Positions 1-27,289 of a stretch of DNA of 64,000 nucleotides are shown here, piece after piece. Each line of letters begins with the position of its first letter. Positions within the stretch are counted from its first letter, which is position 1. The translations under genes were made by a program, and so were the position numbers. The stretch is from Alphaproteobacteria bacterium (GTDB taxonomy: Bacteria > Pseudomonadota > Alphaproteobacteria > SP197), in NCBI GenBank assembly GCA_964291265.2, contig OZ219747.1, positions 1 to 64,000 on the forward strand. Direction: 5' to 3'. The notes under the pieces are model-generated. The model had not been told where the DNA came from, did not search any database, and was given only the letters and a program-made list of their open reading frames with translations.

Positions 1-372
1 CGCCGTGTCGTAGGCTCTCTTCGCCGCATCGGCCGCCGCCTTGGCCTTGTCGGCGTACATCTTCGCCTTCGCGGGAAGCTGGACGGACACGAGGCTCATC
101 ACCGCCGCCTGCGCCGCCTCCGAGCCGATCTTGGCCGGATCGTCGCCGGCCGCCGCCATGCCCTGGGCCGCGAGGTCCGAGGCGGCCTTGGCCGCCGTCT
201 CGGCAGCCTTGGCCTTATCCCGCTGCTCCTGGAGCTCCGGAGCCACCGCCGGAGGATCAGCCGGGGCGGCCGTCTTGTTGCTGCTGCTGCACGCCGCCAG
301 CCCGAAAGCGAGTACGACCACGCTGCAGGCCATCGCCACGTTCTTGTACATCGGTGTCTCCGTCTGTTTCAT
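1..372 (-). CDS. Surface lipoprotein variant A, copy 1 (5' part; runs off the left edge)
   Basis: Matches 9030-9401; MKQTETPMYKNV...LAFGLAAC lipobox followed by an Ala-rich region. Confidence 0.85.
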   Translation of the reverse strand, partial: MKQTETPMYKNVAMACSVVVLAFGLAACSSSNKTAAPADPPAVAPELQEQRDKAKAAETAAKAASDLAAQGMAAAGDDPAKIGSEAAQAAVMSLVSVQLPAKAKMYADKAKAAADAAKRAYDTA

Positions 373-487
373 CGTCGAGGCTCCCCTTCGACTGCGGAAG
401 AAACCCCGTGAAGGGGCCCTTAGGATTTTGCACGCATGAGGCATCCGCAGGCCATCCGCAGGCGGCCCCGACGAACGCTCGGCGCTC

Positions 488-516
488 AATATAGGCCTGC
501 GAAACGAAAGCTGCAA
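488..516 (-). promoter_or_regulatory. sigma70-like promoter of lipoprotein cassette A1
   Basis: Minus strand reads TTGCAG-17 nt-TATATT, ~115 bp upstream of the ATG; identical in all four cassettes. Confidence 0.6.
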
Positions 517-699
517 GCCCTGATCTCCACCCCGTTTTGCCGGCCGACGGCCGGGCGCGAGACCCCCCGGACCCGCTCCGCAGAAGACCCCGGCCAGCCC
601 GCACGCAAGCGCCGGGGAACGCAGGACAGGACAGCAGCGGCCCCCCGCCACCGCACCCGCCGCACGATGGCAAGGACGGGCCGACCGCCGCCCGCGCCC

Positions 700-1599
700 T
701 CACTCCCACTCGATCGTGCCGGGCGGCTTCGACGTCACGTCGTACAGCACCCGGTTGCGGCCCGGAACCCGATTGACGATCGTCGCGGCCACCGCCGCCG
801 ACAACTCCGACGGAAACCGGCAGACGCCCGCCGTTCGGACGCCTCGTCCGCACGCAGCAGGCCGTGGTCGACCAGCACGCAGGTCAGCCGGTCGCCCACG
901 GCCTCGTGCACCAGCCGCGCCGTCACGGCGCTGTCGACGCCGCCCGACAGCCCGCAGATCACCCGCCCCCGGCCCACCTGCGCCCGGATGCGCGCGACCG
1001 CGTCCGACCGGATCCGGCCGGCCGTTCAGGTTCCCGCCAGGCCGGCCGCCTCCCGGACAAACCGGCGGGGCAGCCGGGAACCGTCCGGCGTGTGCACGAC
1101 CTCCGGATGAAACTGCACCCCGCAGTACCGGCGGCGATCGTCGGCGATGGCCGCAAACGGCGACGCGGCGGTCCGGGCCACCCCCCCGGAAGCCCGGCGG
1201 CACCGCATCCACGCGGTCTCCGTGACTCATCCATACCGGATGACGTTCGCCCGGCTTCCACAGGCCGCCGAACAGCGCCGAAGGCGCCGTGACCTCAAGG
1301 TCCGCGCGCCCGAACTCCCGGTCCCGGGCCGCGTCCACCCGGCCGCCGAGCGCCTGCACCATGGCCTGCTGTCCGTAGCAGCTCCCGAGCACCGGCACGC
1401 CGGCCCGGAAGATCTCGGGCGCGACCGTCGGGGCCGCATCGGACACCGTCGAATCGGGTCCGCCGGACTGGATGACGGCGACGGGTGGAGGATCGAGGCG
1501 CCCGGCCGCCCGGTGCCAGGGGACGATCTCGCAGTAGACGCCGTGCTCGCGCACGCGCCGCGCGATCAGCCGGGTGACCTGACTGCCGAAGAGGATCTT
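700..1599 (-). pseudogene. guaA: GMP synthase pseudogene (frameshifts plus internal deletion)
   Basis: [44 protein letters not shown] and the terminal [18 protein letters not shown] lie in different frames; the middle of the ATPPase domain is deleted near 835. Confidence 0.9.
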
Positions 1600-2300
1600 C
1601 CCGTACGGTTTCCAGACATCGTGCACCGAAGGCCGGTCGCTTCCGCGATCCCGTCCCCGCGGCCTTCGCCGAGGCGGAAAGGGCGGATCCGCTTCGTACC
1701 GGTGACGGGGATCCATTTCCACCGACCGTGAACCCGGACGCCGGTCTCGTCCTTGGGCTTGACGGCGGCCGGGGCCGCAGCATCCCGGACCTGCCCGGCG
1801 ACACCGGAGAATCGGTCGGCGCCCCGGTCCAGAAGGGCGGAAACCGTCCCTTGGGGCCGGGTCACACCGAACCGGTCTGCGAGTACCGCGACGATCCGGC
1901 GACGCGGAATCCGGTGCGCTGCCCCAGGTACTGCACGATCGCCCCCGGGCCGTACGGGACCGGAACCGTCCCGCCCTCCGGAAAGCGGTTCGGGTTCCCC
2001 TCTCCGCAAGGGGCCACACACCGCTTGATGAATCCGGGGTTCGACGGTCTCAAGCGCCATCGGCGGAAGGTCCGTGAGCGGCCGGGTGGCCTGCACCTCC
2101 GAAGGCAATCCGGCCCGGGACCTTCCGCATCGACCGCAGGAATCGGGAGGAAGATCCTCGATCCGACCCGGCGTCTCGGAACGGCGCAGCGTCGTTCCCG
2201 GATGACCGGGCTGGCCGCCCGGCCGGCGGTCCGAAGCACGGCGGCGGACGGAAGTGCTCTCCATTCGTCCCCGGTCGGGAAAGGCCGTCACGGGGGGGAA
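1600..2300 (-). mobile_element. IS66-family transposase remnant
   Basis: [20 protein letters not shown] and VHDVWKPY motifs in shifting frames; fused directly to the guaA remnant. Confidence 0.65.
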
Positions 2301-2418
2301 CCGGGATGTCAAGCCGAAGTTACGACCTGACCCGGGTACCTCCACGCTTCCTTGCGAACTCCCGGACCCCGCCTCGGAAGGGCGCGTACACCCAAGCTGT
2401 CGGCCATGCTCGGCACAC

Positions 2419-2457
2419 AAAAGAGCGGCGCCCGATCCGCGCGGGATCGGGCGCCGC
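2419..2457 (-). terminator. Rho-independent terminator after lipoprotein B1
   Basis: Perfect 14-bp stem GCGGCGCCCGATCC/GGATCGGGCGCCGC followed by TCTTTT on the minus strand. Confidence 0.75.
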
Positions 2458-2511
2458 CTCGCTGACGACCGGGGCAAGCCCGGCGGCGGCGAACCTCAGC
2501 CGCTCACGGGG

Positions 2512-4338
2512 TCACTGCTTGCGGCCACCGAAGGCGCCGCGGAACTCGCCCTGCTTCTTGTCCGCCGAAGTGAAGTCGAAGATGCCGCCGACCTCCACCG
2601 CCATGGGGCCGTAGAAGTTGCCGCTGACCGTGCCCGTGTACTCCCCGGTCGTCTCCAACGTTACGGGGTCATCACCGCTCTTACTGCCCACGTTGGTGGC
2701 GAGGAGCACGGTGGCCTTGGTTCCCGCGAACCCGTTGCCGGCAATCGCACCCTCAAGCCGAGCGAAGGCGGCGGGGGTGTCGGGGTCGTCGACGTTGGAG
2801 CTGGTGGAAAGTGTCACATGAATGCCGTTCGTCACGAAGTTCACCGCCGTTTCCGAACCGCCGGTGTAGGACCGGATCATGCCCTCGCCATCGGCGTCCG
2901 CACTGCGGACCTGCCCAACCCAATGGCCATCATAGACGGCGTGTCCGGAGGTCGGCATGTCGGTGGTCATGCTGGTCAGCGTGCGGACAAACGGGATGCC
3001 CAGCCCATCAGGGTCTTCATTGTCGCCGCCGCTCACTTCCTTCAGCGTGACCCACGTGCCGTAGTTCATGTGTTCGTAGGCCATCTCGGCAGGAAACTTC
3101 ACATCGCCGCGGACGGATATCGCACCATACGTGATCTTCTCGGCGCCGACACTATCACGTTTCAGATAGATACGATCGCCTTTCGCTCTGGTCAGCCCCA
3201 AGAAATTGCCCGCTACAGGCGCAATGACGTAGTAGATTTCCTTGTTCTTGTTCTCCTCGGTATCGGCGTTGGAGTCCTTTGTGTCCATCTCAATCTTATT
3301 ATTGCTGACCATGACACCTGACGTTTCGTCATTAAGATTATTCCAATCCTCTTGCATGAGCTTGTAGAACTCTCCGCCTGCCCGATGAACTTTCAACTTG
3401 GGGTAGCTTGTGGTTGTGACTGCATCCGTTAAATCGAGCGCTCCGTACGGCAGGTCGTTGCTTACATCGTGGTCCGTCTCCTCGGGGTCGGGTCCTCCTT
3501 CACCCGCCGGGACATAGATGAAAACATCCTTGGAGCCGACATACTTGTCGATGATCCGCAAACGGGCCGTGTCGTCTTTCGAGTCGATGTCGACGCCGAC
3601 CGGCAGTTTCCGCGCCTCGATCTCCGGCTGCGCCAGTCTCTCGGGATCTGCTTGGTAGGTGATTGCCGTCCGCGCGGTGTGCGCGTCCTCTTCGATTTCT
3701 TGGGTTCCGGTTGTTACCTTCTGCTCGCCGGTGCCGGTTTCCGCCTTCGGAGCACCCGACATGATCGATGTGGCGCCGACCGTGTAGGTTCCGTCGGCGT
3801 ACTTGATCCCCATCTTGGCCGCATCCACCGCCTGTTTGGCCTTCGCATTGGCAATCGCGGCCTGCGCCTCGGCTTCCTTCCGGGCCGCCTCGGCGGCGCG
3901 CTTGGCCTCGGTCGCCGCCACCACGCTCGTCGTCGCCGCCGCCTTCGCGGATTCCGCCTTCGCCGTGTCGTAGGCTTTCTTCGCCGCATCGGCCGCCGCC
4001 TTGGCCTCGTCGGCGTACATCTTCGCCTTCGTAGCAAGCTGGACGGACACGAGGTTCATCACCGCCGTCTGCGCCTCATCCGAGCCGATCTTGGCCGGAT
4101 CGTCGTCGGCCGCCGCCATGCCCTGGGCCGCGAGATCCGAGGCGGCCTTGGCCGCATCCTCGGCCGCCTTGGCCGCATCCCGCTGCTGCTGGAGCTCCGC
4201 ATCCACCTTCGGAGGAGGATCAGCCGGGGCGGCCGTCTTGTTGCTGCTGCTGCTGCACGCCGCCAGCCCGAAAGCGAGCACGACCACGCTGCAGGCCGTC
4301 GCCACGTTCTTGTACATCGGTGTCTCCGTCTGTTTCAT
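2512..4338 (-). CDS. TbpB-like (transferrin-binding-protein-like) surface lipoprotein variant B, copy 1 (608 aa)
   Basis: Lipobox LAAC, Ala-rich helical region, C-terminal barrel motifs MPTSGHAVYDGHW and GNFYGP..EVGGIF..GAFGGRK; alternative start at 4317. Confidence 0.85.
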   Translation of the reverse strand: MKQTETPMYKNVATACSVVVLAFGLAACSSSSNKTAAPADPPPKVDAELQQQRDAAKAAEDAAKAASDLAAQGMAAADDDPAKIGSDEAQTAVMNLVSVQLATKAKMYADEAKAAADAAKKAYDTAKAESAKAAATTSVVAATEAKRAAEAARKEAEAQAAIANAKAKQAVDAAKMGIKYADGTYTVGATSIMSGAPKAETGTGEQKVTTGTQEIEEDAHTARTAITYQADPERLAQPEIEARKLPVGVDIDSKDDTARLRIIDKYVGSKDVFIYVPAGEGGPDPEETDHDVSNDLPYGALDLTDAVTTTSYPKLKVHRAGGEFYKLMQEDWNNLNDETSGVMVSNNKIEMDTKDSNADTEENKNKEIYYVIAPVAGNFLGLTRAKGDRIYLKRDSVGAEKITYGAISVRGDVKFPAEMAYEHMNYGTWVTLKEVSGGDNEDPDGLGIPFVRTLTSMTTDMPTSGHAVYDGHWVGQVRSADADGEGMIRSYTGGSETAVNFVTNGIHVTLSTSSNVDDPDTPAAFARLEGAIAGNGFAGTKATVLLATNVGSKSGDDPVTLETTGEYTGTVSGNFYGPMAVEVGGIFDFTSADKKQGEFRGAFGGRKQ

Positions 4339-4453
4339 CGTCGAGGCTCCCCTTCGACTGCGGAAGAAACCCCGTGAAGGGGCCCTTAGGATTTTGCACG
4401 CATGAGGCATCCGCAGGCCATCCGCAGGCGGCCCCGACGAACGCTCGGCGCTC

Positions 4454-4482
4454 AATATAGGCCTGCGAAACGAAAGCTGCAA
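4454..4482 (-). promoter_or_regulatory. sigma70-like promoter of cassette B1
   Basis: TTGCAG-N17-TATATT. Confidence 0.6.
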
Positions 4483-4665
4483 GCCCTGATCTCCACCCCG
4501 TTTTGCCGGCCGACGGCCGGGCGCGAGGCACCCCCGGACCCGCTCCGCAGAAGACCCCGGCCAGCCCGCACGCAAGCGCCGGGGAACGCAGGACAGGACA
4601 GCAGCGGCCCCCCGCCACCGCACCCGCCGCACGATGGCAAGGACGGGCCGACCGCCGCCGCGCCC

Positions 4666-5030
4666 TCACTCCCACTCGATCGTGCCGGGCGGCTTCGACG
4701 TCACGTCGTACAGCACCCGGTTGCGGCCCGGAACCCGATTGACGATCGTCGCGGCCACCGCCGCCGACAACTCCGACGGAAACCGGCAGACGCCCGCCGT
4801 CATGCCGTCGACCGACGTCACCGCACGCCGCCCGAGAGCGTAGTCGTACGAGCGGCGGTCTCCCATCACCCCGACACTCCGGACCGGCAGCAGGACCGCA
4901 AACGCCTGCCAGATGTCGTCGTACAGGCCCGCCCGGCGGATGGCGTCCAGCCCGGTCCGGTCGGCCTCGCGCAGCAGCGCAACCCTGGCGCGGGTGACCG
5001 CGCCGGGGATCCGGACCGCCAGCCCCGCGC
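4666..5030 (-). pseudogene. guaA: GMP synthase C-terminal fragment, truncated by an IS4 end
   Basis: GLAVRIPG...[25 protein letters not shown]...[11 protein letters not shown]; begins exactly at the IS4 TIR (5031). Confidence 0.9.
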
Positions 5031-5450
5031 CTTTCAACCGGACACACCCGTCTCATCGGACTCCTCGCCAACCCGGCCGTACATGGTGGCCCATGAGGAT
5101 CGGCTTTCGACGTCGGTCTGCGACGACGGGGGATGGACGGAAGGCAGCATCGACGGCCGAGAACAGCCCGCGCTCGTCCCTGGCGCAAGGAGTGGCGCAA
5201 CGCGAAGGGCGACCCGTACCTGGCCTCGGCACGCACGGCCTTGCCCGGTCTTGTTTCGTCGCTCGACATCGTCCTTCCCGCACCCAGGCCTCAATGCCCT
5301 CAGCCCCGGCATCCTTGAGCAGGACGATCCCGACAAGCCCCTTGCAGGGGCCCTGGAGGACCTCGGAGAAGTCACCGTGGAGCCGGTCGGCAGCGGCGCG
5401 GACAAGCGCGCTTGGCACGGTCGATGATGGCGACCTGGCATCCCGAGGGC
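5031..5450 (+). mobile_element. Left-end remnant of DUF4338-IS4 element
   Basis: TIR CTTTCAACCGGACAC; sequence homologous to 21420-21850 (AHEDRLSTS, EWRNAKG, LEDLGEVT, MMATWHPEG). Confidence 0.85.
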
Positions 5451-5454
5451 GCTG

Positions 5455-5741
5455 CAGGATCCCCTCGTCGCGCCCCGATGGCCTCGGCGGCCTGGGGGTC
5501 TCCGCCGCTTGCGCTCGAGACCGTCGAACCCCGGATTCCCCAGGCGGTGTGTCGCCCCTGCGGAGAGGGGAACCCGGGCCGCTTTCCGGAGAGCGGGACG
5601 GCCCGGTCCCGTACGGCCCGGGGGCGATCGCGCAGTACCTGGGGCAGCGCACCGGATTCCGCGTCGCCGGATCGTCGCGGTACTCGCAGACCGGTTCGGT
5701 GTGACCCGGCCCCAAGGGACGGTTTCCGCCCTTCTGGACCG
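5455..5741 (+). mobile_element. IS66 transposase remnant, inverted relative to 1825-2067
   Basis: Near-identical reverse complement of 1825-2067. Confidence 0.7.
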
Positions 5742-5984
5742 ACGCCCTCGCCTGGCATGAAGCGCGACCCCCGCCGGAATCCAGGGCCGGAAAGCCACGC
5801 GGAAGACGCCGGAAACGCAGGGGCTGGAACCTCGCCCGGCGGCTGCGGGACCCTCGAAAGGGGATTCTGCGGTTCACGCGGGACCCGTCCGTTCCACCGA
5901 CTGCCGCACAACGCACGCACACTCGGCCCGGAAGCATCACCCGGATTGGACAAACCAGAGCCGGTGCGATGCGGCTCCCTGCCG

Positions 5985-7322
5985 TCAGAAGGTTCCGACG
6001 ACGCCGAATTCGCCGACGACGCGGGTGTAGTCGTAGAGCACGAGGTTGCTCTTCCGCCGCTCGTGGCGCACGGTGATTTCCGGCATGAAGCCGAACAGTT
6101 CGACATACCGGTTGGACAGTCGGACCCACGCCGCCAGCGTCCGGTCCCGCCGCGCGTCCGGACCGAGCCACAGGAGCGGGGCCCCGTACCTGCGCCACAC
6201 GTGGGTCGCTCCCCCGCTCGCCACGAAGCCGCGGGGGAGCTCGCGCGACACCGACAGTCCGACCGTGAACGCGCGCCACGAATAGCCCTCCTGATCCAGC
6301 GCCTCGCGGCTCCAGCCGGCATCCGCCTGCAGCAGCGTCGCCTGGCCCAGAGCATGAACCAGATCGATCCCGGCCGCATCCGCGGTCCCCGTGCCGAGAA
6401 ATCCCTCATAGTCGACCCACTCGTGCCTGAGCGTCGCGCCCAGCCGCCACGTCGGCCCGGCCAGCCAGCTGCCCGTCAGTTCGAGGCCCTGGGCCCGGCT
6501 GTAGGTATCGCCGGCAACCCAGCGCTGCCGGACGGTACCCTCGGCGCGCAGGTCGAACGCGCCGAACAGAAAGCGCGGCCCGGCGCGCAGGCTGAGGATG
6601 CGGTCGCTGAATTCGCTCTTCCGGTAGGTCCGGGTCCGAAGCCCGCCGCCCACCCGGAACCGCAGGTCGGGCGAGAGCCGCTCCTCGTGGCTTCCGTACA
6701 GGTTCGCCGCCACCCCGACATCGCTGGTCCGGCGTGCATCGTCCGACAGCGTGGCGGGCACGCCGGACAGCGGGATCTGGCGTGCATCGGTGGCGGTGTT
6801 GATGTTGGTGTCGGGCGCGAGGGCCAGCGAGCCGGTGACCGACCAGCCCTTGCGCCGCCGGATCCGGTCGAGGAAGGCGAGGGCATTGGCGCGAACCTCC
6901 TCGGGCAGATTGCCCGCCCCGAGCGCCAGACGGAAATGACGCGCTGCGTTGCGGTCCTCCCCAGCCTGGAAATACGCCAGCGCCAGGTCGAGCCGCACCC
7001 GGGGCAGGTCGGGGTTGCGCGCCAGCATCGCCCGGAAACGCGCGATCGCGGCCGGCCAGTCGCCGCGCTGCATCGCAATCGATCCGTGCAGGAAATCCAG
7101 ATCGTCGGCATTCCCCTCGCCCGGCGGCACACCCTCGAGAAGAACCGCCGCATCCTCGGGCTGGCCCGCCACCAGCGCGGTCCGCGCGGCCTCGATCAGT
7201 ACCTCGGCAGAGACCCCGTCATCAGGCGGCTCCCGGTCCGGATCCTCCTGTGCGGACAAGGGAGCCGCAGCCAGAACCAGCGCGAGCAGAAGGGGAATCG
7301 CAAAACCCGTAGATCGAGGCAT
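5985..7322 (-). CDS. Slam-like surface lipoprotein assembly modulator (TPR + DUF560 beta-barrel; type XI secretion)
   Basis: Signal peptide, TPR (RVRLDLALAYF), APDTNIN motif, SNLVLYDY and C-terminal Phe; directly downstream of a TbpB-like lipoprotein. Confidence 0.85.
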   Translation of the reverse strand: MPRSTGFAIPLLLALVLAAAPLSAQEDPDREPPDDGVSAEVLIEAARTALVAGQPEDAAVLLEGVPPGEGNADDLDFLHGSIAMQRGDWPAAIARFRAMLARNPDLPRVRLDLALAYFQAGEDRNAARHFRLALGAGNLPEEVRANALAFLDRIRRRKGWSVTGSLALAPDTNINTATDARQIPLSGVPATLSDDARRTSDVGVAANLYGSHEERLSPDLRFRVGGGLRTRTYRKSEFSDRILSLRAGPRFLFGAFDLRAEGTVRQRWVAGDTYSRAQGLELTGSWLAGPTWRLGATLRHEWVDYEGFLGTGTADAAGIDLVHALGQATLLQADAGWSREALDQEGYSWRAFTVGLSVSRELPRGFVASGGATHVWRRYGAPLLWLGPDARRDRTLAAWVRLSNRYVELFGFMPEITVRHERRKSNLVLYDYTRVVGEFGVVGTF

Positions 7323-7382
7323 GCACGGATTGCCCGGCCAGCGTCCGAAAAGACAAGGCCGCCAGGGTCGTGACGGCGGCGC

Positions 7383-9401
7383 CTATTCGGGAACGTCCGG
7401 AATATCGAGCCGACGATTGACCTTCATCAAAGCACCCGGGACGGCACCCGACGTTGACGGGATCATCTCGGCCATCGGCATGCCGAACTTCGAGCCGCCG
7501 AAGGCACCGCGGAACTCGCCCTTCACCAACTTCTCCGACGTATAGTCGAACACGCCGCCGACCTCCTCGGCCTCAGAGCCGAAGAAGCTACCGCTGAACT
7601 CGCCCGTGAAGCCGGCTCCATCGGCAGTGGCGACCAGGTTCCCCTTGTTGGCCTTGACGTCGGAGACCTTGGTTCCCGAGAACATGTTGCCGGAAATCGC
7701 GCCCTCAAGCATGGCAAGCTGGTGCAGATTGACCTTGACGGTATTCTTCGCAAAGTCCGCCGTCACCACCGAGTTGCCGCTTTGCTCGGTAATCGGAGAA
7801 GGGTTGGTGGTGACGCCGCCGGCGCCCGAGACGACGGCCCTCGCACGAACATGCGCCGCCCAGGAACCGTTGTAGGTGGCGGTGCCGGTCGCCGGCATGG
7901 CGTCGGCGGCGGTCATGCTGCCGCCCTGCTTGGCCATGGCGAATGCGATGCCCAGCTCCTTCGGCTTCTCGCCGGAATCGCTCAGCATCGACCACAGGCC
8001 GAAATTGACATGATCGTAGGCCATCGATTCCGGAAAGTCGGAAACGGATATCTTGTCAGGGTCTCCCCGATAGTCTCCCGTCCAAGCCTGGATCATCTTG
8101 TACTGGAACGACTTCGTGCCGTCCGGCTTGGTGATGGTCGCGACCAGTTCCAGCCATGTCCTTCGGTCATTGCGGGCACCATCCGCGTCGTTACGGTTGT
8201 CTTGAATGTAGAAGACCTTGCCTTCTCCAAGTTTTTCCTCGTCGTCGCCCGTATAGATGTCGAACGTTCCGGCGCTCCCGTTCCAGATCCGGCCCCCGAC
8301 GGGTTCGACCGAGCCTGACGTGGCAAGGTAGAAGTTGCCGGACGCCTTCTCCACCACCTTCGGCCCGCCCGCATAGTCGGTACCGGTGTCATCCTTCGCC
8401 CACTTGCCGTAGGGAGCATCCGGTTCCTGGTCTACGGTGGCCGTGACTTGGGTCTCTTCGCGATAGAAGAATCCGACGGATGCCTTGCCCATGTAATGCG
8501 TGACGAGCCAGAGACGGGACTTGTCGTCCTCCGAATCGTACATGTTGCTGACCCGGATCTTGCGGCCCGTATTGATCTGCGGCGATCCCAAGACGCCCCC
8601 TGCCGGCGTGTCCCGGGATGTGAGGCCCGTGTATTCGGTGCCGGCGTTATGGATGCGGGGCCTAAGGTCAGCCACCATATGGGTCACGTCGGTGGTCACA
8701 ACCTTGTCCGTGGATGGGCTCACGGGATCCTTGCGGGCCACGGTCTTCTTTGCGATGCCGTCGTCAGACCCGAGAAGGCCGACCGTCACCGACTTGCCGT
8801 CGACGGTTCTCGTGGTCCCCGCTGTGCCGGGCGTGATCGACATGGCGCCGACCGTGTAGGTTCCGTCGGCGTACGCGATCCCCTTGGCCGCATCCACCGC
8901 CAGTTTGGCCTGGGCATTGGCGATCTCGGCCTGCGCCTCGGCTTCCTTCCGGGCCGCCTCGGCGTCGAGCCTGGCCTCGGCCGCCGCCGCCAGACTGGTC
9001 GCCGCCGCCGCCTTCGCGGATGCCGCCTTCGCCGTGTCGTAGGCTCTCTTCGCCGCATCGGCCGCCGCCTTGGCCTTGTCGGCGTACATCTTCGCCTTCG
9101 CGGGAAGCTGGACGGACACGAGGCTCATCACCGCCGCCTGCGCCGCCTCCGAGCCGATCTTGGCCGGATCGTCGCCGGCCGCCGCCATGCCCTGGGCCGC
9201 GAGGTCCGAGGCGGCCTTGGCCGCCGTCTCGGCAGCCTTGGCCTTATCCCGCTGCTCCTGGAGCTCCGGAGCCACCGCCGGAGGATCAGCCGGGGCGGCC
9301 GTCTTGTTGCTGCTGCTGCACGCCGCCAGCCCGAAAGCGAGTACGACCACGCTGCAGGCCATCGCCACGTTCTTGTACATCGGTGTCTCCGTCTGTTTCA
9401 T
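7383..9401 (-). CDS. TbpB-like surface lipoprotein variant A, copy 2 (672 aa)
   Basis: Lipobox LAAC, Ala-rich N-terminus, MPATGTATYNGSW, GSFFGSEAEEVGGVF..GAFGG. Confidence 0.85.
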   Translation of the reverse strand: MKQTETPMYKNVAMACSVVVLAFGLAACSSSNKTAAPADPPAVAPELQEQRDKAKAAETAAKAASDLAAQGMAAAGDDPAKIGSEAAQAAVMSLVSVQLPAKAKMYADKAKAAADAAKRAYDTAKAASAKAAAATSLAAAAEARLDAEAARKEAEAQAEIANAQAKLAVDAAKGIAYADGTYTVGAMSITPGTAGTTRTVDGKSVTVGLLGSDDGIAKKTVARKDPVSPSTDKVVTTDVTHMVADLRPRIHNAGTEYTGLTSRDTPAGGVLGSPQINTGRKIRVSNMYDSEDDKSRLWLVTHYMGKASVGFFYREETQVTATVDQEPDAPYGKWAKDDTGTDYAGGPKVVEKASGNFYLATSGSVEPVGGRIWNGSAGTFDIYTGDDEEKLGEGKVFYIQDNRNDADGARNDRRTWLELVATITKPDGTKSFQYKMIQAWTGDYRGDPDKISVSDFPESMAYDHVNFGLWSMLSDSGEKPKELGIAFAMAKQGGSMTAADAMPATGTATYNGSWAAHVRARAVVSGAGGVTTNPSPITEQSGNSVVTADFAKNTVKVNLHQLAMLEGAISGNMFSGTKVSDVKANKGNLVATADGAGFTGEFSGSFFGSEAEEVGGVFDYTSEKLVKGEFRGAFGGSKFGMPMAEMIPSTSGAVPGALMKVNRRLDIPDVPE

Positions 9402-9516
9402 CGTCGAGGCTCCCCTTCGACTGCGGAAGAAACCCCGTGAAGGGGCCCTTAGGATTTTGCACGCATGAGGCATCCGCAGGCCATCCGCAGGCGGCCCCGA
9501 CGAACGCTCGGCGCTC

Positions 9517-9545
9517 AATATAGGCCTGCGAAACGAAAGCTGCAA
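9517..9545 (-). promoter_or_regulatory. sigma70-like promoter of cassette A2 (probably drives lipoprotein A plus Slam)
   Basis: TTGCAG-N17-TATATT. Confidence 0.6.
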
Positions 9546-9728
9546 GCCCTGATCTCCACCCCGTTTTGCCGGCCGACGGCCGGGCGCGAGACCCCCCGGA
9601 CCCGCTCCGCAGAAGACCCCGGCCAGCCCGCACGCAAGCGCCGGGGAACGCAGGACAGGACAGCAGCGGCCCCCCGCCACCGCACCCGCCGCACGATGGC
9701 AAGGACGGGCCGACCGCCGCCCGCGCCC

Positions 9729-10628
9729 TCACTCCCACTCGATCGTGCCGGGCGGCTTCGACGTCACGTCGTACAGCACCCGGTTGCGGCCCGGAACCCG
9801 ATTGACGATCGTCGCGGCCACCGCCGCCGACAACTCCGACGGAAACCGGCAGACGCCCGCCGTTCGGACGCCTCGTCCGCACGCAGCAGGCCGTGGTCGA
9901 CCAGCACGCAGGTCAGCCGGTCGCCCACGGCCTCGTGCACCAGCCGCGCCGTCACGGCGCTGTCGACGCCGCCCGACAGCCCGCAGATCACCCGCCCCCG
10001 GCCCACCTGCGCCCGGATGCGCGCGACCGCGTCCGACCGGATCCGGCCGGCCGTTCAGGTTCCCGCCAGGCCGGCCGCCTCCCGGACAAACCGGCGGGGC
10101 AGCCGGGAACCGTCCGGCGTGTGCACGACCTCCGGATGAAACTGCACCCCGCAGTACCGGCGGCGATCGTCGGCGATGGCCGCAAACGGCGACGCGGCGG
10201 TCCGGGCCACCCCCCCGGAAGCCCGGCGGCACCGCATCCACGCGGTCTCCGTGACTCATCCATACCGGATGACGTTCGCCCGGCTTCCACAGGCCGCCGA
10301 ACAGCGCCGAAGGCGCCGTGACCTCAAGGTCCGCGCGCCCGAACTCCCGGTCCCGGGCCGCGTCCACCCGGCCGCCGAGCGCCTGCACCATGGCCTGCTG
10401 TCCGTAGCAGCTCCCGAGCACCGGCACGCCGGCCCGGAAGATCTCGGGCGCGACCGTCGGGGCCGCATCGGACACCGTCGAATCGGGTCCGCCGGACTGG
10501 ATGACGGCGACGGGTGGAGGATCGAGGCGCCCGGCCGCCCGGTGCCAGGGGACGATCTCGCAGTAGACGCCGTGCTCGCGCACGCGCCGCGCGATCAGCC
10601 GGGTGACCTGACTGCCGAAGAGGATCTT
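9729..10628 (-). pseudogene. guaA: GMP synthase pseudogene, copy of 700-1599
   Basis: Same translations as copy 1. Confidence 0.9.
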
Positions 10629-11329
10629 CCCGTACGGTTTCCAGACATCGTGCACCGAAGGCCGGTCGCTTCCGCGATCCCGTCCCCGCGGCCTTCGCCG
10701 AGGCGGAAAGGGCGGATCCGCTTCGTACCGGTGACGGGGATCCATTTCCACCGACCGTGAACCCGGACGCCGGTCTCGTCCTTGGGCTTGACGGCGGCCG
10801 GGGCCGCAGCATCCCGGACCTGCCCGGCGACACCGGAGAATCGGTCGGCGCCCCGGTCCAGAAGGGCGGAAACCGTCCCTTGGGGCCGGGTCACACCGAA
10901 CCGGTCTGCGAGTACCGCGACGATCCGGCGACGCGGAATCCGGTGCGCTGCCCCAGGTACTGCACGATCGCCCCCGGGCCGTACGGGACCGGAACCGTCC
11001 CGCCCTCCGGAAAGCGGTTCGGGTTCCCCTCTCCGCAAGGGGCCACACACCGCTTGATGAATCCGGGGTTCGACGGTCTCAAGCGCCATCGGCGGAAGGT
11101 CCGTGAGCGGCCGGGTGGCCTGCACCTCCGAAGGCAATCCGGCCCGGGACCTTCCGCATCGACCGCAGGAATCGGGAGGAAGATCCTCGATCCGACCCGG
11201 CGTCTCGGAACGGCGCAGCGTCGTTCCCGGATGACCGGGCTGGCCGCCCGGCCGGCGGTCCGAAGCACGGCGGCGGACGGAAGTGCTCTCCATTCGTCCC
11301 CGGTCGGGAAAGGCCGTCACGGGGGGGAA
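10629..11329 (-). mobile_element. IS66 transposase remnant, copy 2
   Basis: Duplicate of 1600-2300. Confidence 0.65.
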
Positions 11330-11447
11330 CCGGGATGTCAAGCCGAAGTTACGACCTGACCCGGGTACCTCCACGCTTCCTTGCGAACTCCCGGACCCCG
11401 CCTCGGAAGGGCGCGTACACCCAAGCTGTCGGCCATGCTCGGCACAC

Positions 11448-11486
11448 AAAAGAGCGGCGCCCGATCCGCGCGGGATCGGGCGCCGC
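11448..11486 (-). terminator. Rho-independent terminator after lipoprotein B2
   Basis: Same 14-bp stem and T-run as 2419-2457. Confidence 0.75.
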
Positions 11487-11540
11487 CTCGCTGACGACCG
11501 GGGCAAGCCCGGCGGCGGCGAACCTCAGCCGCTCACGGGG

Positions 11541-13367
11541 TCACTGCTTGCGGCCACCGAAGGCGCCGCGGAACTCGCCCTGCTTCTTGTCCGCCGAAGT
11601 GAAGTCGAAGATGCCGCCGACCTCCACCGCCATGGGGCCGTAGAAGTTGCCGCTGACCGTGCCCGTGTACTCCCCGGTCGTCTCCAACGTTACGGGGTCA
11701 TCACCGCTCTTACTGCCCACGTTGGTGGCGAGGAGCACGGTGGCCTTGGTTCCCGCGAACCCGTTGCCGGCAATCGCACCCTCAAGCCGAGCGAAGGCGG
11801 CGGGGGTGTCGGGGTCGTCGACGTTGGAGCTGGTGGAAAGTGTCACATGAATGCCGTTCGTCACGAAGTTCACCGCCGTTTCCGAACCGCCGGTGTAGGA
11901 CCGGATCATGCCCTCGCCATCGGCGTCCGCACTGCGGACCTGCCCAACCCAATGGCCATCATAGACGGCGTGTCCGGAGGTCGGCATGTCGGTGGTCATG
12001 CTGGTCAGCGTGCGGACAAACGGGATGCCCAGCCCATCAGGGTCTTCATTGTCGCCGCCGCTCACTTCCTTCAGCGTGACCCACGTGCCGTAGTTCATGT
12101 GTTCGTAGGCCATCTCGGCAGGAAACTTCACATCGCCGCGGACGGATATCGCACCATACGTGATCTTCTCGGCGCCGACACTATCACGTTTCAGATAGAT
12201 ACGATCGCCTTTCGCTCTGGTCAGCCCCAAGAAATTGCCCGCTACAGGCGCAATGACGTAGTAGATTTCCTTGTTCTTGTTCTCCTCGGTATCGGCGTTG
12301 GAGTCCTTTGTGTCCATCTCAATCTTATTATTGCTGACCATGACACCTGACGTTTCGTCATTAAGATTATTCCAATCCTCTTGCATGAGCTTGTAGAACT
12401 CTCCGCCTGCCCGATGAACTTTCAACTTGGGGTAGCTTGTGGTTGTGACTGCATCCGTTAAATCGAGCGCTCCGTACGGCAGGTCGTTGCTTACATCGTG
12501 GTCCGTCTCCTCGGGGTCGGGTCCTCCTTCACCCGCCGGGACATAGATGAAAACATCCTTGGAGCCGACATACTTGTCGATGATCCGCAAACGGGCCGTG
12601 TCGTCTTTCGAGTCGATGTCGACGCCGACCGGCAGTTTCCGCGCCTCGATCTCCGGCTGCGCCAGTCTCTCGGGATCTGCTTGGTAGGTGATTGCCGTCC
12701 GCGCGGTGTGCGCGTCCTCTTCGATTTCTTGGGTTCCGGTTGTTACCTTCTGCTCGCCGGTGCCGGTTTCCGCCTTCGGAGCACCCGACATGATCGATGT
12801 GGCGCCGACCGTGTAGGTTCCGTCGGCGTACTTGATCCCCATCTTGGCCGCATCCACCGCCTGTTTGGCCTTCGCATTGGCAATCGCGGCCTGCGCCTCG
12901 GCTTCCTTCCGGGCCGCCTCGGCGGCGCGCTTGGCCTCGGTCGCCGCCACCACGCTCGTCGTCGCCGCCGCCTTCGCGGATTCCGCCTTCGCCGTGTCGT
13001 AGGCTTTCTTCGCCGCATCGGCCGCCGCCTTGGCCTCGTCGGCGTACATCTTCGCCTTCGTAGCAAGCTGGACGGACACGAGGTTCATCACCGCCGTCTG
13101 CGCCTCATCCGAGCCGATCTTGGCCGGATCGTCGTCGGCCGCCGCCATGCCCTGGGCCGCGAGATCCGAGGCGGCCTTGGCCGCATCCTCGGCCGCCTTG
13201 GCCGCATCCCGCTGCTGCTGGAGCTCCGCATCCACCTTCGGAGGAGGATCAGCCGGGGCGGCCGTCTTGTTGCTGCTGCTGCTGCACGCCGCCAGCCCGA
13301 AAGCGAGCACGACCACGCTGCAGGCCGTCGCCACGTTCTTGTACATCGGTGTCTCCGTCTGTTTCAT
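11541..13367 (-). CDS. TbpB-like surface lipoprotein variant B, copy 2
   Basis: Translation identical to 2512-4338. Confidence 0.85.
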   Translation of the reverse strand: MKQTETPMYKNVATACSVVVLAFGLAACSSSSNKTAAPADPPPKVDAELQQQRDAAKAAEDAAKAASDLAAQGMAAADDDPAKIGSDEAQTAVMNLVSVQLATKAKMYADEAKAAADAAKKAYDTAKAESAKAAATTSVVAATEAKRAAEAARKEAEAQAAIANAKAKQAVDAAKMGIKYADGTYTVGATSIMSGAPKAETGTGEQKVTTGTQEIEEDAHTARTAITYQADPERLAQPEIEARKLPVGVDIDSKDDTARLRIIDKYVGSKDVFIYVPAGEGGPDPEETDHDVSNDLPYGALDLTDAVTTTSYPKLKVHRAGGEFYKLMQEDWNNLNDETSGVMVSNNKIEMDTKDSNADTEENKNKEIYYVIAPVAGNFLGLTRAKGDRIYLKRDSVGAEKITYGAISVRGDVKFPAEMAYEHMNYGTWVTLKEVSGGDNEDPDGLGIPFVRTLTSMTTDMPTSGHAVYDGHWVGQVRSADADGEGMIRSYTGGSETAVNFVTNGIHVTLSTSSNVDDPDTPAAFARLEGAIAGNGFAGTKATVLLATNVGSKSGDDPVTLETTGEYTGTVSGNFYGPMAVEVGGIFDFTSADKKQGEFRGAFGGRKQ

Positions 13368-13482
13368 CGTCGAGGCTCCCCTTCGACTGCGGAAGAAACC
13401 CCGTGAAGGGGCCCTTAGGATTTTGCACGCATGAGGCATCCGCAGGCCATCCGCAGGCGGCCCCGACGAACGCTCGGCGCTC

Positions 13483-13511
13483 AATATAGGCCTGCGAAAC
13501 GAAAGCTGCAA
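13483..13511 (-). promoter_or_regulatory. sigma70-like promoter of cassette B2
   Basis: TTGCAG-N17-TATATT. Confidence 0.6.
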
Positions 13512-13694
13512 GCCCTGATCTCCACCCCGTTTTGCCGGCCGACGGCCGGGCGCGAGGCACCCCCGGACCCGCTCCGCAGAAGACCCCGGCCAGCCCGCAC
13601 GCAAGCGCCGGGGAACGCAGGACAGGACAGCAGCGGCCCCCCGCCACCGCACCCGCCGCACGATGGCAAGGACGGGCCGACCGCCGCCGCGCCC

Positions 13695-14059
13695 TCACTC
13701 CCACTCGATCGTGCCGGGCGGCTTCGACGTCACGTCGTACAGCACCCGGTTGCGGCCCGGAACCCGATTGACGATCGTCGCGGCCACCGCCGCCGACAAC
13801 TCCGACGGAAACCGGCAGACGCCCGCCGTCATGCCGTCGACCGACGTCACCGCACGCCGCCCGAGAGCGTAGTCGTACGAGCGGCGGTCTCCCATCACCC
13901 CGACACTCCGGACCGGCAGCAGGACCGCAAACGCCTGCCAGATGTCGTCGTACAGGCCCGCCCGGCGGATGGCGTCCAGCCCGGTCCGGTCGGCCTCGCG
14001 CAGCAGCGCAACCCTGGCGCGGGTGACCGCGCCGGGGATCCGGACCGCCAGCCCCGCGC
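13695..14059 (-). pseudogene. guaA: GMP synthase C-terminal fragment, copy 2
   Basis: Duplicate of 4666-5030. Confidence 0.9.
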
Positions 14060-14963
14060 CTTTCAACCGGACACACCCGTCTCATCGGACTCCTCGCCAA
14101 CCCGGCCGTACATGGTGGCCCATGAGGATCGGCTTTCGACGTCGGTCTGCGACGACGGGGGATGGACGGAAGGCAGCATCGACGGCCGAGAACAGCCCGC
14201 GCTCGTCCCTGGCGCAAGGAGTGGCGCAACGCGAAGGGCGACCCGTACCTGGCCTCGGCACGCACGGCCTTGCCCGGTCTTGTTTCGTCGCTCGACATCG
14301 TCCTTCCCGCACCCAGGCCTCATGCCCTCAGCCCCGGCATCCTTGAGCAGGACGATCCCGACAAGCCCCTTGCAGGGGCCCTGGAGGACCTCGGAGAAGT
14401 CACCGTGGAGCCGGTCGGCAGCGGCGCGGACAAGCGCGCTTGGCACGGTCGATGATGGCGACCTGGCATCCCGAGGGCGAGGCGCGCTCCCCCCGCCCGA
14501 GGGCGCTGCAGGATCCCCTCGTCGCGCCCCGATGGCCTCGGCGGCCTGGGGGTCTCCGCCGCTTGCGCTCGAGACCGTCGAACCCCGGATTCCCCAGGCG
14601 GTGTGTCGCCCCTGCGGAGAGGGGAACCCGGGCCGCTTTCCGGAGGGCGGGACGGCCCGGTCCCGTACGGCCCGGGGCGATCGCGCAGTACCTGGGGCAG
14701 CGCACCGGATTCCGCGTCGCCGGATCGTCGCGATACTCGCAGACCGGTTCGGTGTGACCCGGCCCCAATACCCCAACGGCCGCTCCCCTCATGACAGAGG
14801 GCAACTCATAGGATCACCGGCCTATAAAGTCAAGCCGCGCAGGATCAACAACCCGACGGTACCAAAACGGCATCCAACGCAACCAACGTCAACACAGACT
14901 CAGACCTGACGAGGTGCCTGGGCAGTTACGAAAAAGATGGATCCAACAGTGTCTGGTTGAAAG
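14060..14963 (+). mobile_element. Internally deleted DUF4338-IS4 element carrying an IS66 remnant
   Basis: Left TIR CTTTCAACCGGACAC (14060) and right TIR GTGTCTGGTTGAAAG (14949-14963); 14930-14963 matches the IS4 end at 26210-26243; IS66-like end CCTGGGCAGTTAC at 14917-14929. Confidence 0.8.
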
Positions 14964-15197
14964 GTCCCAGTGGGGATGGATGTCCAGTCCCCGGAACAGG
15001 GGTTCGTCACAGGCGAACAGAGACCGCAGGGTGTCGAGCAGCAGGCTCTTGCCGAAGCAGCGCGGACGCGACAGGAAGTAATGGTCACCCTGCTCGACCA
15101 GATCCCGGATGAGAGGGGTCTTGTCGACGTAGTAGAAATCCTCGCTGCGAATCGTCGGAAAATCCTGGATCCCGACCGGAAGACGGCAGCGGCTCAT
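14964..15197 (-). pseudogene. AAA-ATPase-like / PD-(D/E)XK-associated protein, N-terminal stub truncated by the IS4 end
   Basis: LPVGIQDF..IR...YYVDKT and FLSRPRCFGKSLLLDTL (family motif RPRRFGKS). Confidence 0.8.
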
Positions 15198-15792
15198 CGG
15201 TCTCTCCCTTCGCGGCGGCGGAACCTGCGGCCGAGGCGGGAAGTGCCGGGCCTCCCGTGTCGTGGCTCCGAATGTCCCGGAACGGTCACGCCTGAACACA
15301 ACGGCCACGCTATCCGCCCGCCTGTCCATGAGCAAGGGAGAGATACGACCAGGGTGGACATGAAGGGCAACCCGCAGCCGTTGAAGCACCGTTCAGCTTG
15401 GCAACCCGGAGGCTCATGCTGCGAAGCGGCGCCGAGCATCGAAAGGCGCCTTGCAGCGTGAGCCGTTCGGCCCTGTCCTTCGAGAATGCGCTACCGGCCT
15501 GTCAGGGGCGTCACACGCTGGCTTCGCGCCTGATTCCTGTTGCATGGTGAACGTGAGAAATGTCCTCCGTGACCGGACGACGACGCGGAACGCACTCGCA
15601 GATCGTGGACCGATCGTCTCTCTCGATCGCCACGACGGCTCCCATCCCTTGTGACGCCGGCGTTTCGGGCGGTGTGCAGGGCAATCTCGCCCGATCTCGA
15701 CTGCGTTCGCCTGTCTTGCCGTCGCACCCCAGGCATCGTTTCGCGCAAGGCGCGTGAAGCCCGCCTGGTCGACGGGAGACCAGGCCCCGGGA

Positions 15793-16212
15793 TCAATGCG
15801 CGCGATCAGGGGCCGGGACGGCCTCGAGCATGGCCTCGAGGATCGCGAGTTCGTCCCTGGCGCGGGTGCGTTCGGTGTCGTTCTCGGCATCACGCAGATC
15901 AAGTTCGGCAGCCTCGATGCGGCCACGCACGTCTCCGGCATCGATGCTCGCCACCATCAGGGCCCTTTCCGCCAGGACCGTGCAGCGGTCGGGCAGAACC
16001 TCGGCGAAACCTCCGGCGACGAAGACCTGGTGCGCCACCCTGGCGTCCTCGTGGATGTCGATCACACCGGGACGGATCGTGGAAATCAGGGGCGCGTGAT
16101 CGGGCAGCACGCCGATGTCCCCGTCGCCCCCGGGTATCACGATCATGTCGAAGGTGTCGGAGACGAGAACGCGCTCCGGGCTGACCAGTTCGAAAGTGAC
16201 CTTCCCGGCCAT
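15793..16212 (-). CDS. atpC: ATP synthase F1 epsilon subunit
   Basis: FELVSPER, IPGGDGDIGVLPDHAPLIS, GGFAEV. Confidence 0.95.
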   Translation of the reverse strand: MAGKVTFELVSPERVLVSDTFDMIVIPGGDGDIGVLPDHAPLISTIRPGVIDIHEDARVAHQVFVAGGFAEVLPDRCTVLAERALMVASIDAGDVRGRIEAAELDLRDAENDTERTRARDELAILEAMLEAVPAPDRAH

Positions 16213-21290: not shown

Positions 21291-22469
21291 GGAGTAGGCT
21301 GCCGCCATGACGACCACCTTCCCTCTTCCAGCCCGTGAGCGTGATGCCCGTTGAGACGCCGGAGGCCTTTCGCAGGAAGAAATTTCCGACGAAGCGTCAC
21401 GATGCGCTGTTCCGGGCGCCTTTCAACGGGACAGGCTTGACTCGACGTTCATGAGGCCTTACATAGTGGCCCATGAGGATCGGCTTTCGACATCTGCGAC
21501 GACGGTTGACTGGCTGAAGGCGGCGTCGGCTGCCGAGGGCAGCACACGCTCGTCTCTGGCGCGGGGATTGTGCGAGCGCGAGGAGTGGCGCAACGCGAAG
21601 GGCGAGCTGTGTCTTGCCTCGGCGCGTGCGGCCCTGCCTGACCTTGCTGCGTCGCTCGACATCGCCCTTCCTGCACCAAGGCCTGATGCCTTCGGCACCG
21701 GCGCCGACACCCTTGAGCGGGACTATCCCGACAAGCTCCTCGCCTGTTCTCTGGAGGACCTTGGAGAGGTCACCTTGGAGCCTGTGGGCGAGGGCGAGGA
21801 CAAGCGCCTGGCCCGTTCGATGATGGCGACCTGGCATCCCGAAGGCGAGGCGTGCGCACCCGGAGCCCGGGTGAGCTACTGGATCACCTCGTCGCGCCAC
21901 GGTCGCCTCGGCGGCCTGGTGTTTGGTGCGGCGAGTTGGCACCAGAAGGCACGCGACGACTTCATCGGCTGGTCCCAGGGAGCCCGTGTCGCCCACCTCG
22001 GCGAGATCGTCAACAATGATCGCTTCCTGATTCTTCCATCGGTGGATGTGAAGGAGTTGGCCTCCCATGCCCTGGCCTGTGCCTGCCGGCGTCTGGCTAC
22101 GGACTGGCACGAGAAGTACGGGGTGATGCCGGTTCTGGCGTACACGTATGTGGGTCCCGAGCACAGCGGCGTGAGCTACCGGGCGGCGGGCTGGGAGCGC
22201 TGTGAGGAGATGACCTCGGGTCGACCTCCCGGGGCCACCGGCCCGGGCGTGCAGCGGTCCGTATGGATGAAGCCCCTGACGCCTGACTGGCGCGCCGTGC
22301 TGTGCCGGGAGCCTGAGCGTGTCATGGGCCAGGCGGCGCCCCTTGTCGGTGATGACAGGACCGACTGGGCGATGAGGGAGTACGCCCGCAGCAGCCACAG
22401 TGACGTGCGCATCCGCGAGCGCCTTGTCACCATGGGCCGGGCGTGGAACGATCGTCCCGGCGCGATCCT

Positions 22470-26965: not shown

Positions 26966-27289
26966 ATGGGCACGATCGCACAAGCCTGGATAGAAGAGGG
27001 AAGAGCCGAGGGGCTCGAGAAGGGACTTGAGAGGGGACTCGAGAGGGGACTTCAGAGAGGACTCGAGAGGGGAAGAGCCGAGGGAATCGAGAAGGGAATC
27101 GAGCGAGGCCGGAGCGAGGCCCTCGCGGAACTTCTTCTTCGTCAACTGTCCTTGCGCTTCGGTGATGTGCCGGGCGCGGTCCGCGAACGGGTCCGCGGTG
27201 CGTCGGCCGCCGAACTGGTGGCCTGGGCGGAGGCGGTGCTGGCTGCCACGAGCCTTGATGATGTGCTGACCGCCAGGCCCAGGCACTGA
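26966..27289 (+). CDS. Putative RpnS small C-terminal protein from an internal start in rpn
   Basis: GGAGG-TTCTG-ATG inside rpn; MGTIAQAWIEEG followed by G(L/I)E(R/K) repeats and a DUF4351-like tail. Confidence 0.6.
   Translation: MGTIAQAWIEEGRAEGLEKGLERGLERGLQRGLERGRAEGIEKGIERGRSEALAELLLRQLSLRFGDVPGAVRERVRGASAAELVAWAEAVLAATSLDDVLTARPRH

Follow-up and report, generated by a model that had tools for sequence, protein, structure and literature searches.

The window analysed here is the first 64,000 nt of contig OZ219747.1, from an alphaproteobacterium of lineage SP197 (assembly GCA_964291265.2). It opens on an array of two lipoprotein genes, A and B, and a gene for Slam, an outer-membrane protein of the type 11 secretion system (T11SS). 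Our reading, to which we give a probability of roughly 70%, is that the array is a likely imported module of these two paralogs and Slam, present in identical 9-kb tandem copies, in which A and B owe the likeness of their leaders, signal peptides and stalks to recombination, their handles and barrels having stayed distinct. An original prediction, made from the sequence alone, had described four distinct cassettes forming an array of antigen variants. It over-counted the diversity of the window, but the boundary that it chose is right and its mechanism is borne out by relatives.

The array repeats with a period of 9,029 bp: positions 1-5293 equal 9030-14322 with zero mismatches, and the likeness of the units continues to 5715/14768 with five differences. 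The order guaA 3' stub, leader of ~320-340 bp and lipoprotein gene does occur four times, but the proteins of the two A copies are 100% alike, as are those of the two B copies, so that the four cassettes amount to two genes. As predicted, there is one Slam gene per period. Genome-wide blastn, tblastn and family hidden Markov model (HMM) searches of the source genome (G000; 4.8 Mb, two contigs C1 and C2, 100% complete) revealed no third full-length paralog, and blastn and tblastn no silent cassette, yielding only full A and B copies with their leaders; further variants like A and B were thus not found in this genome. No recombinase open reading frame (ORF) was seen within the unit, and plasmid records gave no match. 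A second T11SS locus lies at C2:1929335-1931717 (1.93 Mb), with a short TbpB-barrel lipoprotein unrelated to A and B followed by a frameshifted Slam.

Both lipoproteins have a lipobox (LAAC) with Cys28, read from the sequence, in a column at least 90% conserved in the family. They match TbpB_B_D (PF01298) with 57.8 bits (A) and 60.1 bits (B) against a Pfam cut-off of 26, and score 48.2 and 51.0 bits with the NCBIfam slam_lipo equivalog NF041636, below its cut-off of 80. The neighbouring Slam matches PF04575 (78.7 bits) and PF24575, SlipAM being above the Pfam cut-off. In an AlphaFold2 model of mature A (mean pLDDT 80) the helices span residues 45-171 and strands follow from 176, the segment YADGTYTVGA forming the first beta-hairpin after the helical part; the best Foldseek matches of the model are TbpB, LbpB, HpuA, NHBA and fHbp (E 5e-10 to 7e-6). 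Sequence and model together suggest lipoproteins made of a helical stalk, a beta "handle" and a TbpB barrel, which Slam is predicted, by analogy, to export to the surface; the original pairing of Slam with TbpB-barrel cargo is supported by these domain and fold matches. The stalk would hold out a handle-barrel head binding host or community ligands, as an adhesin or fHbp does, and not feeding a TonB receptor. A role in uptake like that of TbpB is unlikely in the source genome, because no TonB-dependent receptor (PF00593, PF07715) was matched there or in two other carriers of the family, G050 and G052, while control matches were obtained in 3 of 14 genomes; five receptor matches occur in carrier G049 and one in carrier G053.

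The number of units is less certain than their identity. The window starts at base 1 of C2, whose own gene order is B-A-Slam-B-A. C1 also starts inside the array: window 553-13166 recurs there in reverse complement, at 100%, as C1:1-12614, the assembly break falls within the tandem repeat, and the rest of the first A copy, truncated at the contig start, is found on C1. In the last unit on C1 a 2.4-kb insertion sequence (IS), with four near-full genome copies, sits just upstream of the A promoter, and only 22 nt of Slam remain before an 88-bp IS end, of which the genome has 44 near-identical copies. Should the IS be polymorphic, the array would comprise two units; should the contigs dovetail, three; a larger number is also possible. 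It is possible, with a chance well short of even, that part of the repeat is an assembly artefact: the two contig ends would then stand for overlapping haplotypes, one with and one without the IS in the last leader, the true state being about two units or one-unit forms in mixture. The 12.6 kb common to the two contig starts at 100% would fit this, as would short-read run X1 (maybe another sample), where the contigs carrying A, B, Slam and the guaA remnant are close to one another in depth (177-207, depth not being copy number) and a single unbroken contig crosses the A-Slam junction. Against it, C2 alone reads B-A-Slam-B-A, the outer and inner transposase remnants differ at five places with the inner one matching C1 exactly, and the distant alphaproteobacterium G049 has a tandem amplification of its own. 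This possibility bears on copy number only and is compatible with our explanation. Contigs of runs X2-X4 show allelic differences in A, B and Slam, and chimeras cannot be phased there.

The block common to A and B and its limit

The ~1 kb of highly similar DNA originally pointed out extends over 3762-4800 and 8834-9863 (94.7% identity) and ends at an identical 32-nt stretch (8874-8843 = 3802-3771) encoding YADGTYTVGA. This stretch is unexceptional: identical blocks of 38 nt and 30 nt lie in the stalk, and the 32-nt block is merely the last. YADG as a special site was rejected, the block being shorter than another identical one and the hairpin being a structural feature of the whole family. Past it GC and GC3 (GC at third codon positions) do fall, GC3 being 0.78 (A) and 0.67 (B) in the handle vs 0.91/0.88 in the stalk, but the divergence described as abrupt does not separate unrelated sequences. 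A and B are 43% identical over the whole protein, and since the part after YADG aligns between them to the C-terminus, and family-wide, we read it as a diverged homologous domain, not foreign cargo.

The limit of homogenisation was located with informative sites among four genes, A and B of the source genome and their orthologs A' and B' of G049, each site being classed as genome-type, paralog-type or other. Residues 1-130 group by genome (24/1/3, in that order), residues 131-176 are mixed (7/5/0), and residues 177-190 (0/3/0) and 191-672 (6/334/7) group by paralog. The leaders behave as the first class: A and B are ~99.6% identical over 500 bp and A' and B' 100% over several hundred bases, while orthologs are at 82-94%. 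Synonymous divergence (dS) between A and B rises from 0.08 in the stalk to 1.6 in the handle, with 0.68 in the barrel. Because leader and stalk group by genome and the rest by paralog, with this contrast in dS between stalk and handle, the 5' block shows concerted evolution that fades through the stalk and ends at the YADG hairpin, where a breakpoint had been proposed.

Trees built on 32 of the 75 collected proteins agree with this pattern: stalks cluster by genome, whereas the handle tree (quick method) contains cross-genome A-like (SH-aLRT 91) and B-like (95) clades, and in a third genome handles of both classes are joined to that genome's own stalk. The handles of A and B are two old lineages, both also in G049, that predate the split between the source genome and G049. 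Domain-wide dN/dS gave no demonstration of positive selection, no value being clearly above 1: orthologs range from 0.47 to 1.09, with 0.64 (A-A') and 0.60 (B-B') for the handles.

Reassortment in relatives and competing explanations

A search with the family profile gave 343 representatives at E <= 1e-30; the top 150 have E values below 1e-93, so that at least 150 clusters at 50% identity lie under this value. Of the family members, 69 of 70 match PF01298. In the genome collection, 32 loci were found, all in metagenome-assembled genomes (MAGs): Alphaproteobacteria, Hoeflea, Defluviicoccus, Gammaproteobacteria, Ca. Poriferihabitaceae, Binatia and one short Chloroflexi contig. To judge by taxon names, the carriers probably live in sponges. 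A Slam match is nearby in 21 of these loci, and the copies are often dispersed among IS elements. Family matches are most numerous in G053 (19), G052 (16), G050 (10) and G051 (7), for which 16, 11, 7 and 4 distinct full-length coding sequences (CDS) were analysed, respectively.

Reassortment is clearest in G052. Its stalks have a mean amino-acid identity of 93% vs 44% for handles, and one stalk is common to 7 of the 11 distinct CDS at >=99%. N-termini 3 and 4 occur with handles 4 and 6 in all four combinations, one stalk bridging them; as identical handles sit on different N-termini, these swaps are recent. Among paralogs of G052 and G053 the ends of identity tracts fall within A-equivalent residues 190-212, a little beyond the YADG hairpin, with a second zone of tract ends in G052 near the barrel start (510-515). 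The G052 copies also have 1.2-2 kb of upstream DNA in common at 95-99%, like the leader block of the window. A test modelled on PHI gave 0 of 1000 permutations in each of G052, G053 and G050. Among close paralogs pooled pN/pS is ~1.0 for handles and 0.42-0.49 for stalks, the pairs being non-independent and only 7 of 55 handle pairs usable in G052. In G053, a Binatia MAG, head-to-tail arrays of three or four family genes (C1:1549511-1557061) coexist with only two intact-looking Slam matches genome-wide, and the most divergent part of the closest paralogs is the barrel, not the handle.

We propose that ordinary homologous recombination (gene conversion and unequal crossing-over) would act on the ~1-kb common promoter-signal-stalk block, its tracts stopping where homology ends, as proposed for the lpl cluster of S. 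aureus. In genomes with many copies it would give new stalk/handle/barrel combinations, of the kind observed in G052; with two handle types only, as in the source genome, it would just homogenise the 5' part and change copy number. The shared block as a recombination platform, part of the original prediction, is supported by the 5'-by-genome and 3'-by-paralog grouping, by the tract ends in G052 and G053 and by the reassortment in G052, and it stands for the family on an evolutionary time scale, though it has produced no new variants in the source genome. Likewise the array of antigen variants is not found in the window, where two genes recur as identical copies, while reshuffling is found in relatives. 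On these sequence comparisons, the window represents a recent amplification of two members from a family whose parts are reshuffled on the evolutionary time scale.

Several points weigh against this interpretation. No A/B chimera exists in the source genome or G049, so that this lineage gives no example of swapping. Even in comparisons between genomes the handle is less conserved than the stalk, and the constant/variable look is partly plain constraint and alanine-rich composition. Stalks show no strong homogenisation in G050, G051 and three small sets (42-58% within genome), and domains in G053 mostly follow one grouping. The PHI-like test is our own script and can be biased by rate variation, and mosaics in MAGs could include assembly chimeras.

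We consider it unlikely that the array is a cassette store for active antigenic variation, in which cells switch exposed domains at a fixed YADG site on ecological time. The clustering of tract ends in G052 and G053, the recent swaps of G052 and the pN/pS contrast would all suit such switching. The source genome, however, has two handle types and no silent cassettes, each copy has its own leader, and the unit shows no recombinase ORF; tract ends spread over ~20 codons, five paralog-type sites lie upstream of YADG, and the A-A' and B-B' handle ratios stay well under 1. Less probable still is a single old duplication under unequal constraint, without recombination, the stalk being held by selection, the head diverging and the repeat being incidental: there are only two paralogs, of lineages older than the split from G049, and the stalk is the more conserved part family-wide, but selection cannot explain the genome-specific identity of a non-coding leader or the low dS of the stalk beside that of the handle, and the informative sites largely refute the idea.

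Origin of the module and features of the window

Only 1 of 32 other genomes of the source's taxonomic family has a member of the lipoprotein family. The orthologs of G049 are 76% (A'), 70% (B') and 87% (Slam) identical to those of the window, and its loci have the same leader and a decayed guaA stub; for AtpD, G049 is 79% identical to the source genome vs 96% and 94% for the same-genus G005 and G002. The guaA remnants of the window have 88-89% nucleotide identity to the intact guaA of G049 and 67% to the host's own. Because this distant alphaproteobacterium has both orthologs and a guaA nearer to the remnants than the host's own, the module likely came horizontally, with its flanks, from a lineage related to G049, donor and direction being putative. 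No lipoprotein gene follows the intact guaA of G049, and the original guaA-linked locus was not found. In G049, A' and B' are each present twice, in different locations, and a 1,990-bp segment made of the A' 3' end and Slam is repeated three times in tandem (G049:C1:743484-749454), an independent amplification of the exporter. The guaA stub as an attachment site of the host's own guaA was rejected (67-75% to own guaA vs 88% to that of G049); ahead of A, the "stub" is the fused end of a guaA pseudogene.

The sequence TTGCAG-N17-TATATT is indeed present in each leader (Table 1). As a promoter it scores low, matching the sigma-70 consensus at 8 of 12 positions, under the promoter-scan threshold, though the G049 leaders retain TTGCAG-N16-TATAGT. 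The 5' untranslated region (9399-9516, minus strand, and the other three) has a predicted strong fold (-51.7 kcal/mol, without shuffle control), and the stretch around the Shine-Dalgarno sequence is identical in G049; translational control is possible. No Rfam structured RNA was matched in window 1-16000. A weak terminator-like hairpin lies between A and Slam (7377-7358).

Table 1. Coordinates of the array and of its edge in the window
Feature	Position	Strand	Similarity
Lipoprotein A copy 1, 5' 124 codons (truncated by contig start, continues in C1)	1..372	-	
Leader with promoter-like TTGCAG-N17-TATATT (516-488)	373..691	-	
guaA pseudogene, 5' part 841-1597 fused by deletion to last 143 bp	692..1597	-	88% to G049 guaA, 67% to own guaA
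Repeat, inverted relative to 5501-5741; likely IS remnant	1825..2067	.	
Terminator-like hairpin, 15 pairs, after B	2424..2458	-	
Lipoprotein B, 608 aa; lipobox, helical stalk, beta handle, TbpB_B_D barrel 461-607	2512..4338	-	
32-nt block (YADGTYTVGA), same in A and B; 3' limit of homogenisation	3771..3802	-	
Leader of B with promoter-like motif (4482-4454)	4339..4657	-	
guaA 3' remnant, 123 codons	4658..5037	-	89% to G049 guaA
Decayed DruA-like transposase remnant, internal copy	5075..5715	.	77% to 21455-21847
Slam / T11SS outer-membrane protein, 445 aa (TPR_Slam + SlipAM)	5985..7322	-	
Lipoprotein A, 672 aa; Cys28, predicted helices 45-171, beta domain from 176, TbpB_B_D 502-638	7383..9401	-	
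32-nt YADGTYTVGA block of A; predicted first beta-hairpin after helical stalk	8843..8874	-	
Leader of A with promoter-like motif (9545-9517)	9402..9720	-	
guaA pseudogene, second identical copy (5' part 9870-10626)	9721..10626	-	
Lipoprotein B, second identical copy	11541..13367	-	
Leader (promoter-like motif 13511-13483) and guaA 3' remnant	13368..14066	-	
Outer transposase-remnant copy; array edge	14104..14768	.	5 differences from internal copy, including ~25-bp indel
Multi-copy element abutting array edge	14769..14929	.	10 near-full genome copies

The cassettes are flanked by decayed pieces of a transposase-like ORF with a DruA domain (PF14236); such an ORF at 21451-22512 has 58 tblastn matches in the genome and behaves like a transposase family. 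On C1, the IS of the last unit (C1:12615-15055) encodes a 724-aa DruA-like/IS4-type transposase, has a target duplication of ~11 bp and was inserted ~40 bp upstream of where the last A copy has its -35 motif; the leader of the second B' of G049 is also interrupted, at about that position. At the Slam cut a 27-bp palindrome is joined to the 88-bp IS end (C1:17347-17461). In G002, two weak barrel matches in 545-aa frames, 2,421 bp apart (C1:1.485-1.491 Mb), are possibly another tandem pair of T11SS cargo. A low-complexity repeat with a 12-bp period at 26998-27108 is presumably of the kind found in Rpn-family transposase C-termini.

Relation to known systems and significance

T11SS cargo is known mostly from animal pathogens and one nematode symbiont, with one or few genes per Slam. 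A and B have the barrel fold of TbpB, HpuA, fHbp and NHBA in the model, but they form a single handle-barrel unit on a helical stalk, with 10-22% identity and no TonB-dependent partner found. Programmed antigenic variation by gene conversion, as in Neisseria pilE/pilS and Borrelia vlsE, combines constant flanks, a variable core and recombination; here, unlike in those systems, every copy is a full gene with a leader of its own, and neither silent cassettes nor a single expression site is present.

The closest architecture is that of the Pls-like T11SS cargo, where an EEARKA repeat was named and Haemophilus Pls was shown to reach the cell surface in a TepS-dependent way (Grossman et al., 10.1101/2024.09.26.615229 = PMC12282271). 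Both have a lipobox, a helical N-terminus, a beta handle or pedestal, a C-terminal TbpB_B_D barrel and an adjoining DUF560/Slam gene, and A has EAARKEAEA; the helical part of A and B is a predicted short bundle of ~125 residues and not a long repeat. The consulted parts of PMC12282271 describe no paralog expansion, concerted evolution or domain reassortment, and "recombination" and "sponge" are absent from its main text. Its supplement lists a DUF560 and TbpB_B_D pair in Ca. Synechococcus spongiarum, so that T11SS outside Proteobacteria was dropped as a novelty.

For the mechanism, the parallel is the S. aureus lpl cluster as set out in the consulted parts of Tsuru and Kobayashi 2008 (PMC2568036): a conserved internal region is the site of homologous recombination that shuffles 5' and 3' variable regions, and unequal crossing-over yields duplications, deletions and apparent conversions. 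As in lpl, phylogenies are incongruent on either side of a conserved block; new 5'/3' combinations, also a trait of lpl, occur in G052, while the source genome and G049 keep two handle types. The present family differs from lpl in being an unrelated protein family of Gram-negative bacteria, with predicted surface export by Slam, a constant block that includes promoter and leader, and a distribution that crosses phyla. No published description of this expanded, reassorting family, or of Slam-cargo shuffling in sponge symbionts, was found in a mostly freely accessible literature.

A wider and more tentative proposal, which we hold to be doubtful as a whole, is that a large undescribed family of T11SS cargo is exchanged, along with Slam, between sponge symbionts belonging to several classes and phyla, and serves as a variable repertoire for recognising the host; the constant promoter-signal-stalk block would let handle and barrel swap in the host, tandem amplification would tune dose, and the window would be a freshly imported two-allele seed. 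The window itself stands at the plain end of the family's range, with two genes in identical copies. The family, with up to 19 matches per genome, is present in uncultured, probably sponge-associated Alphaproteobacteria, Gammaproteobacteria including Ca. Poriferihabitaceae, and Binatia; it passes between lineages that are far apart, and its reassortment falls at a boundary between structural domains. In the many-copy relatives, the reassorted halves likely give a varied cell-surface repertoire, and the A/B family offers concrete, expressible candidates for the variable surfaces of symbionts toward their sponge host.

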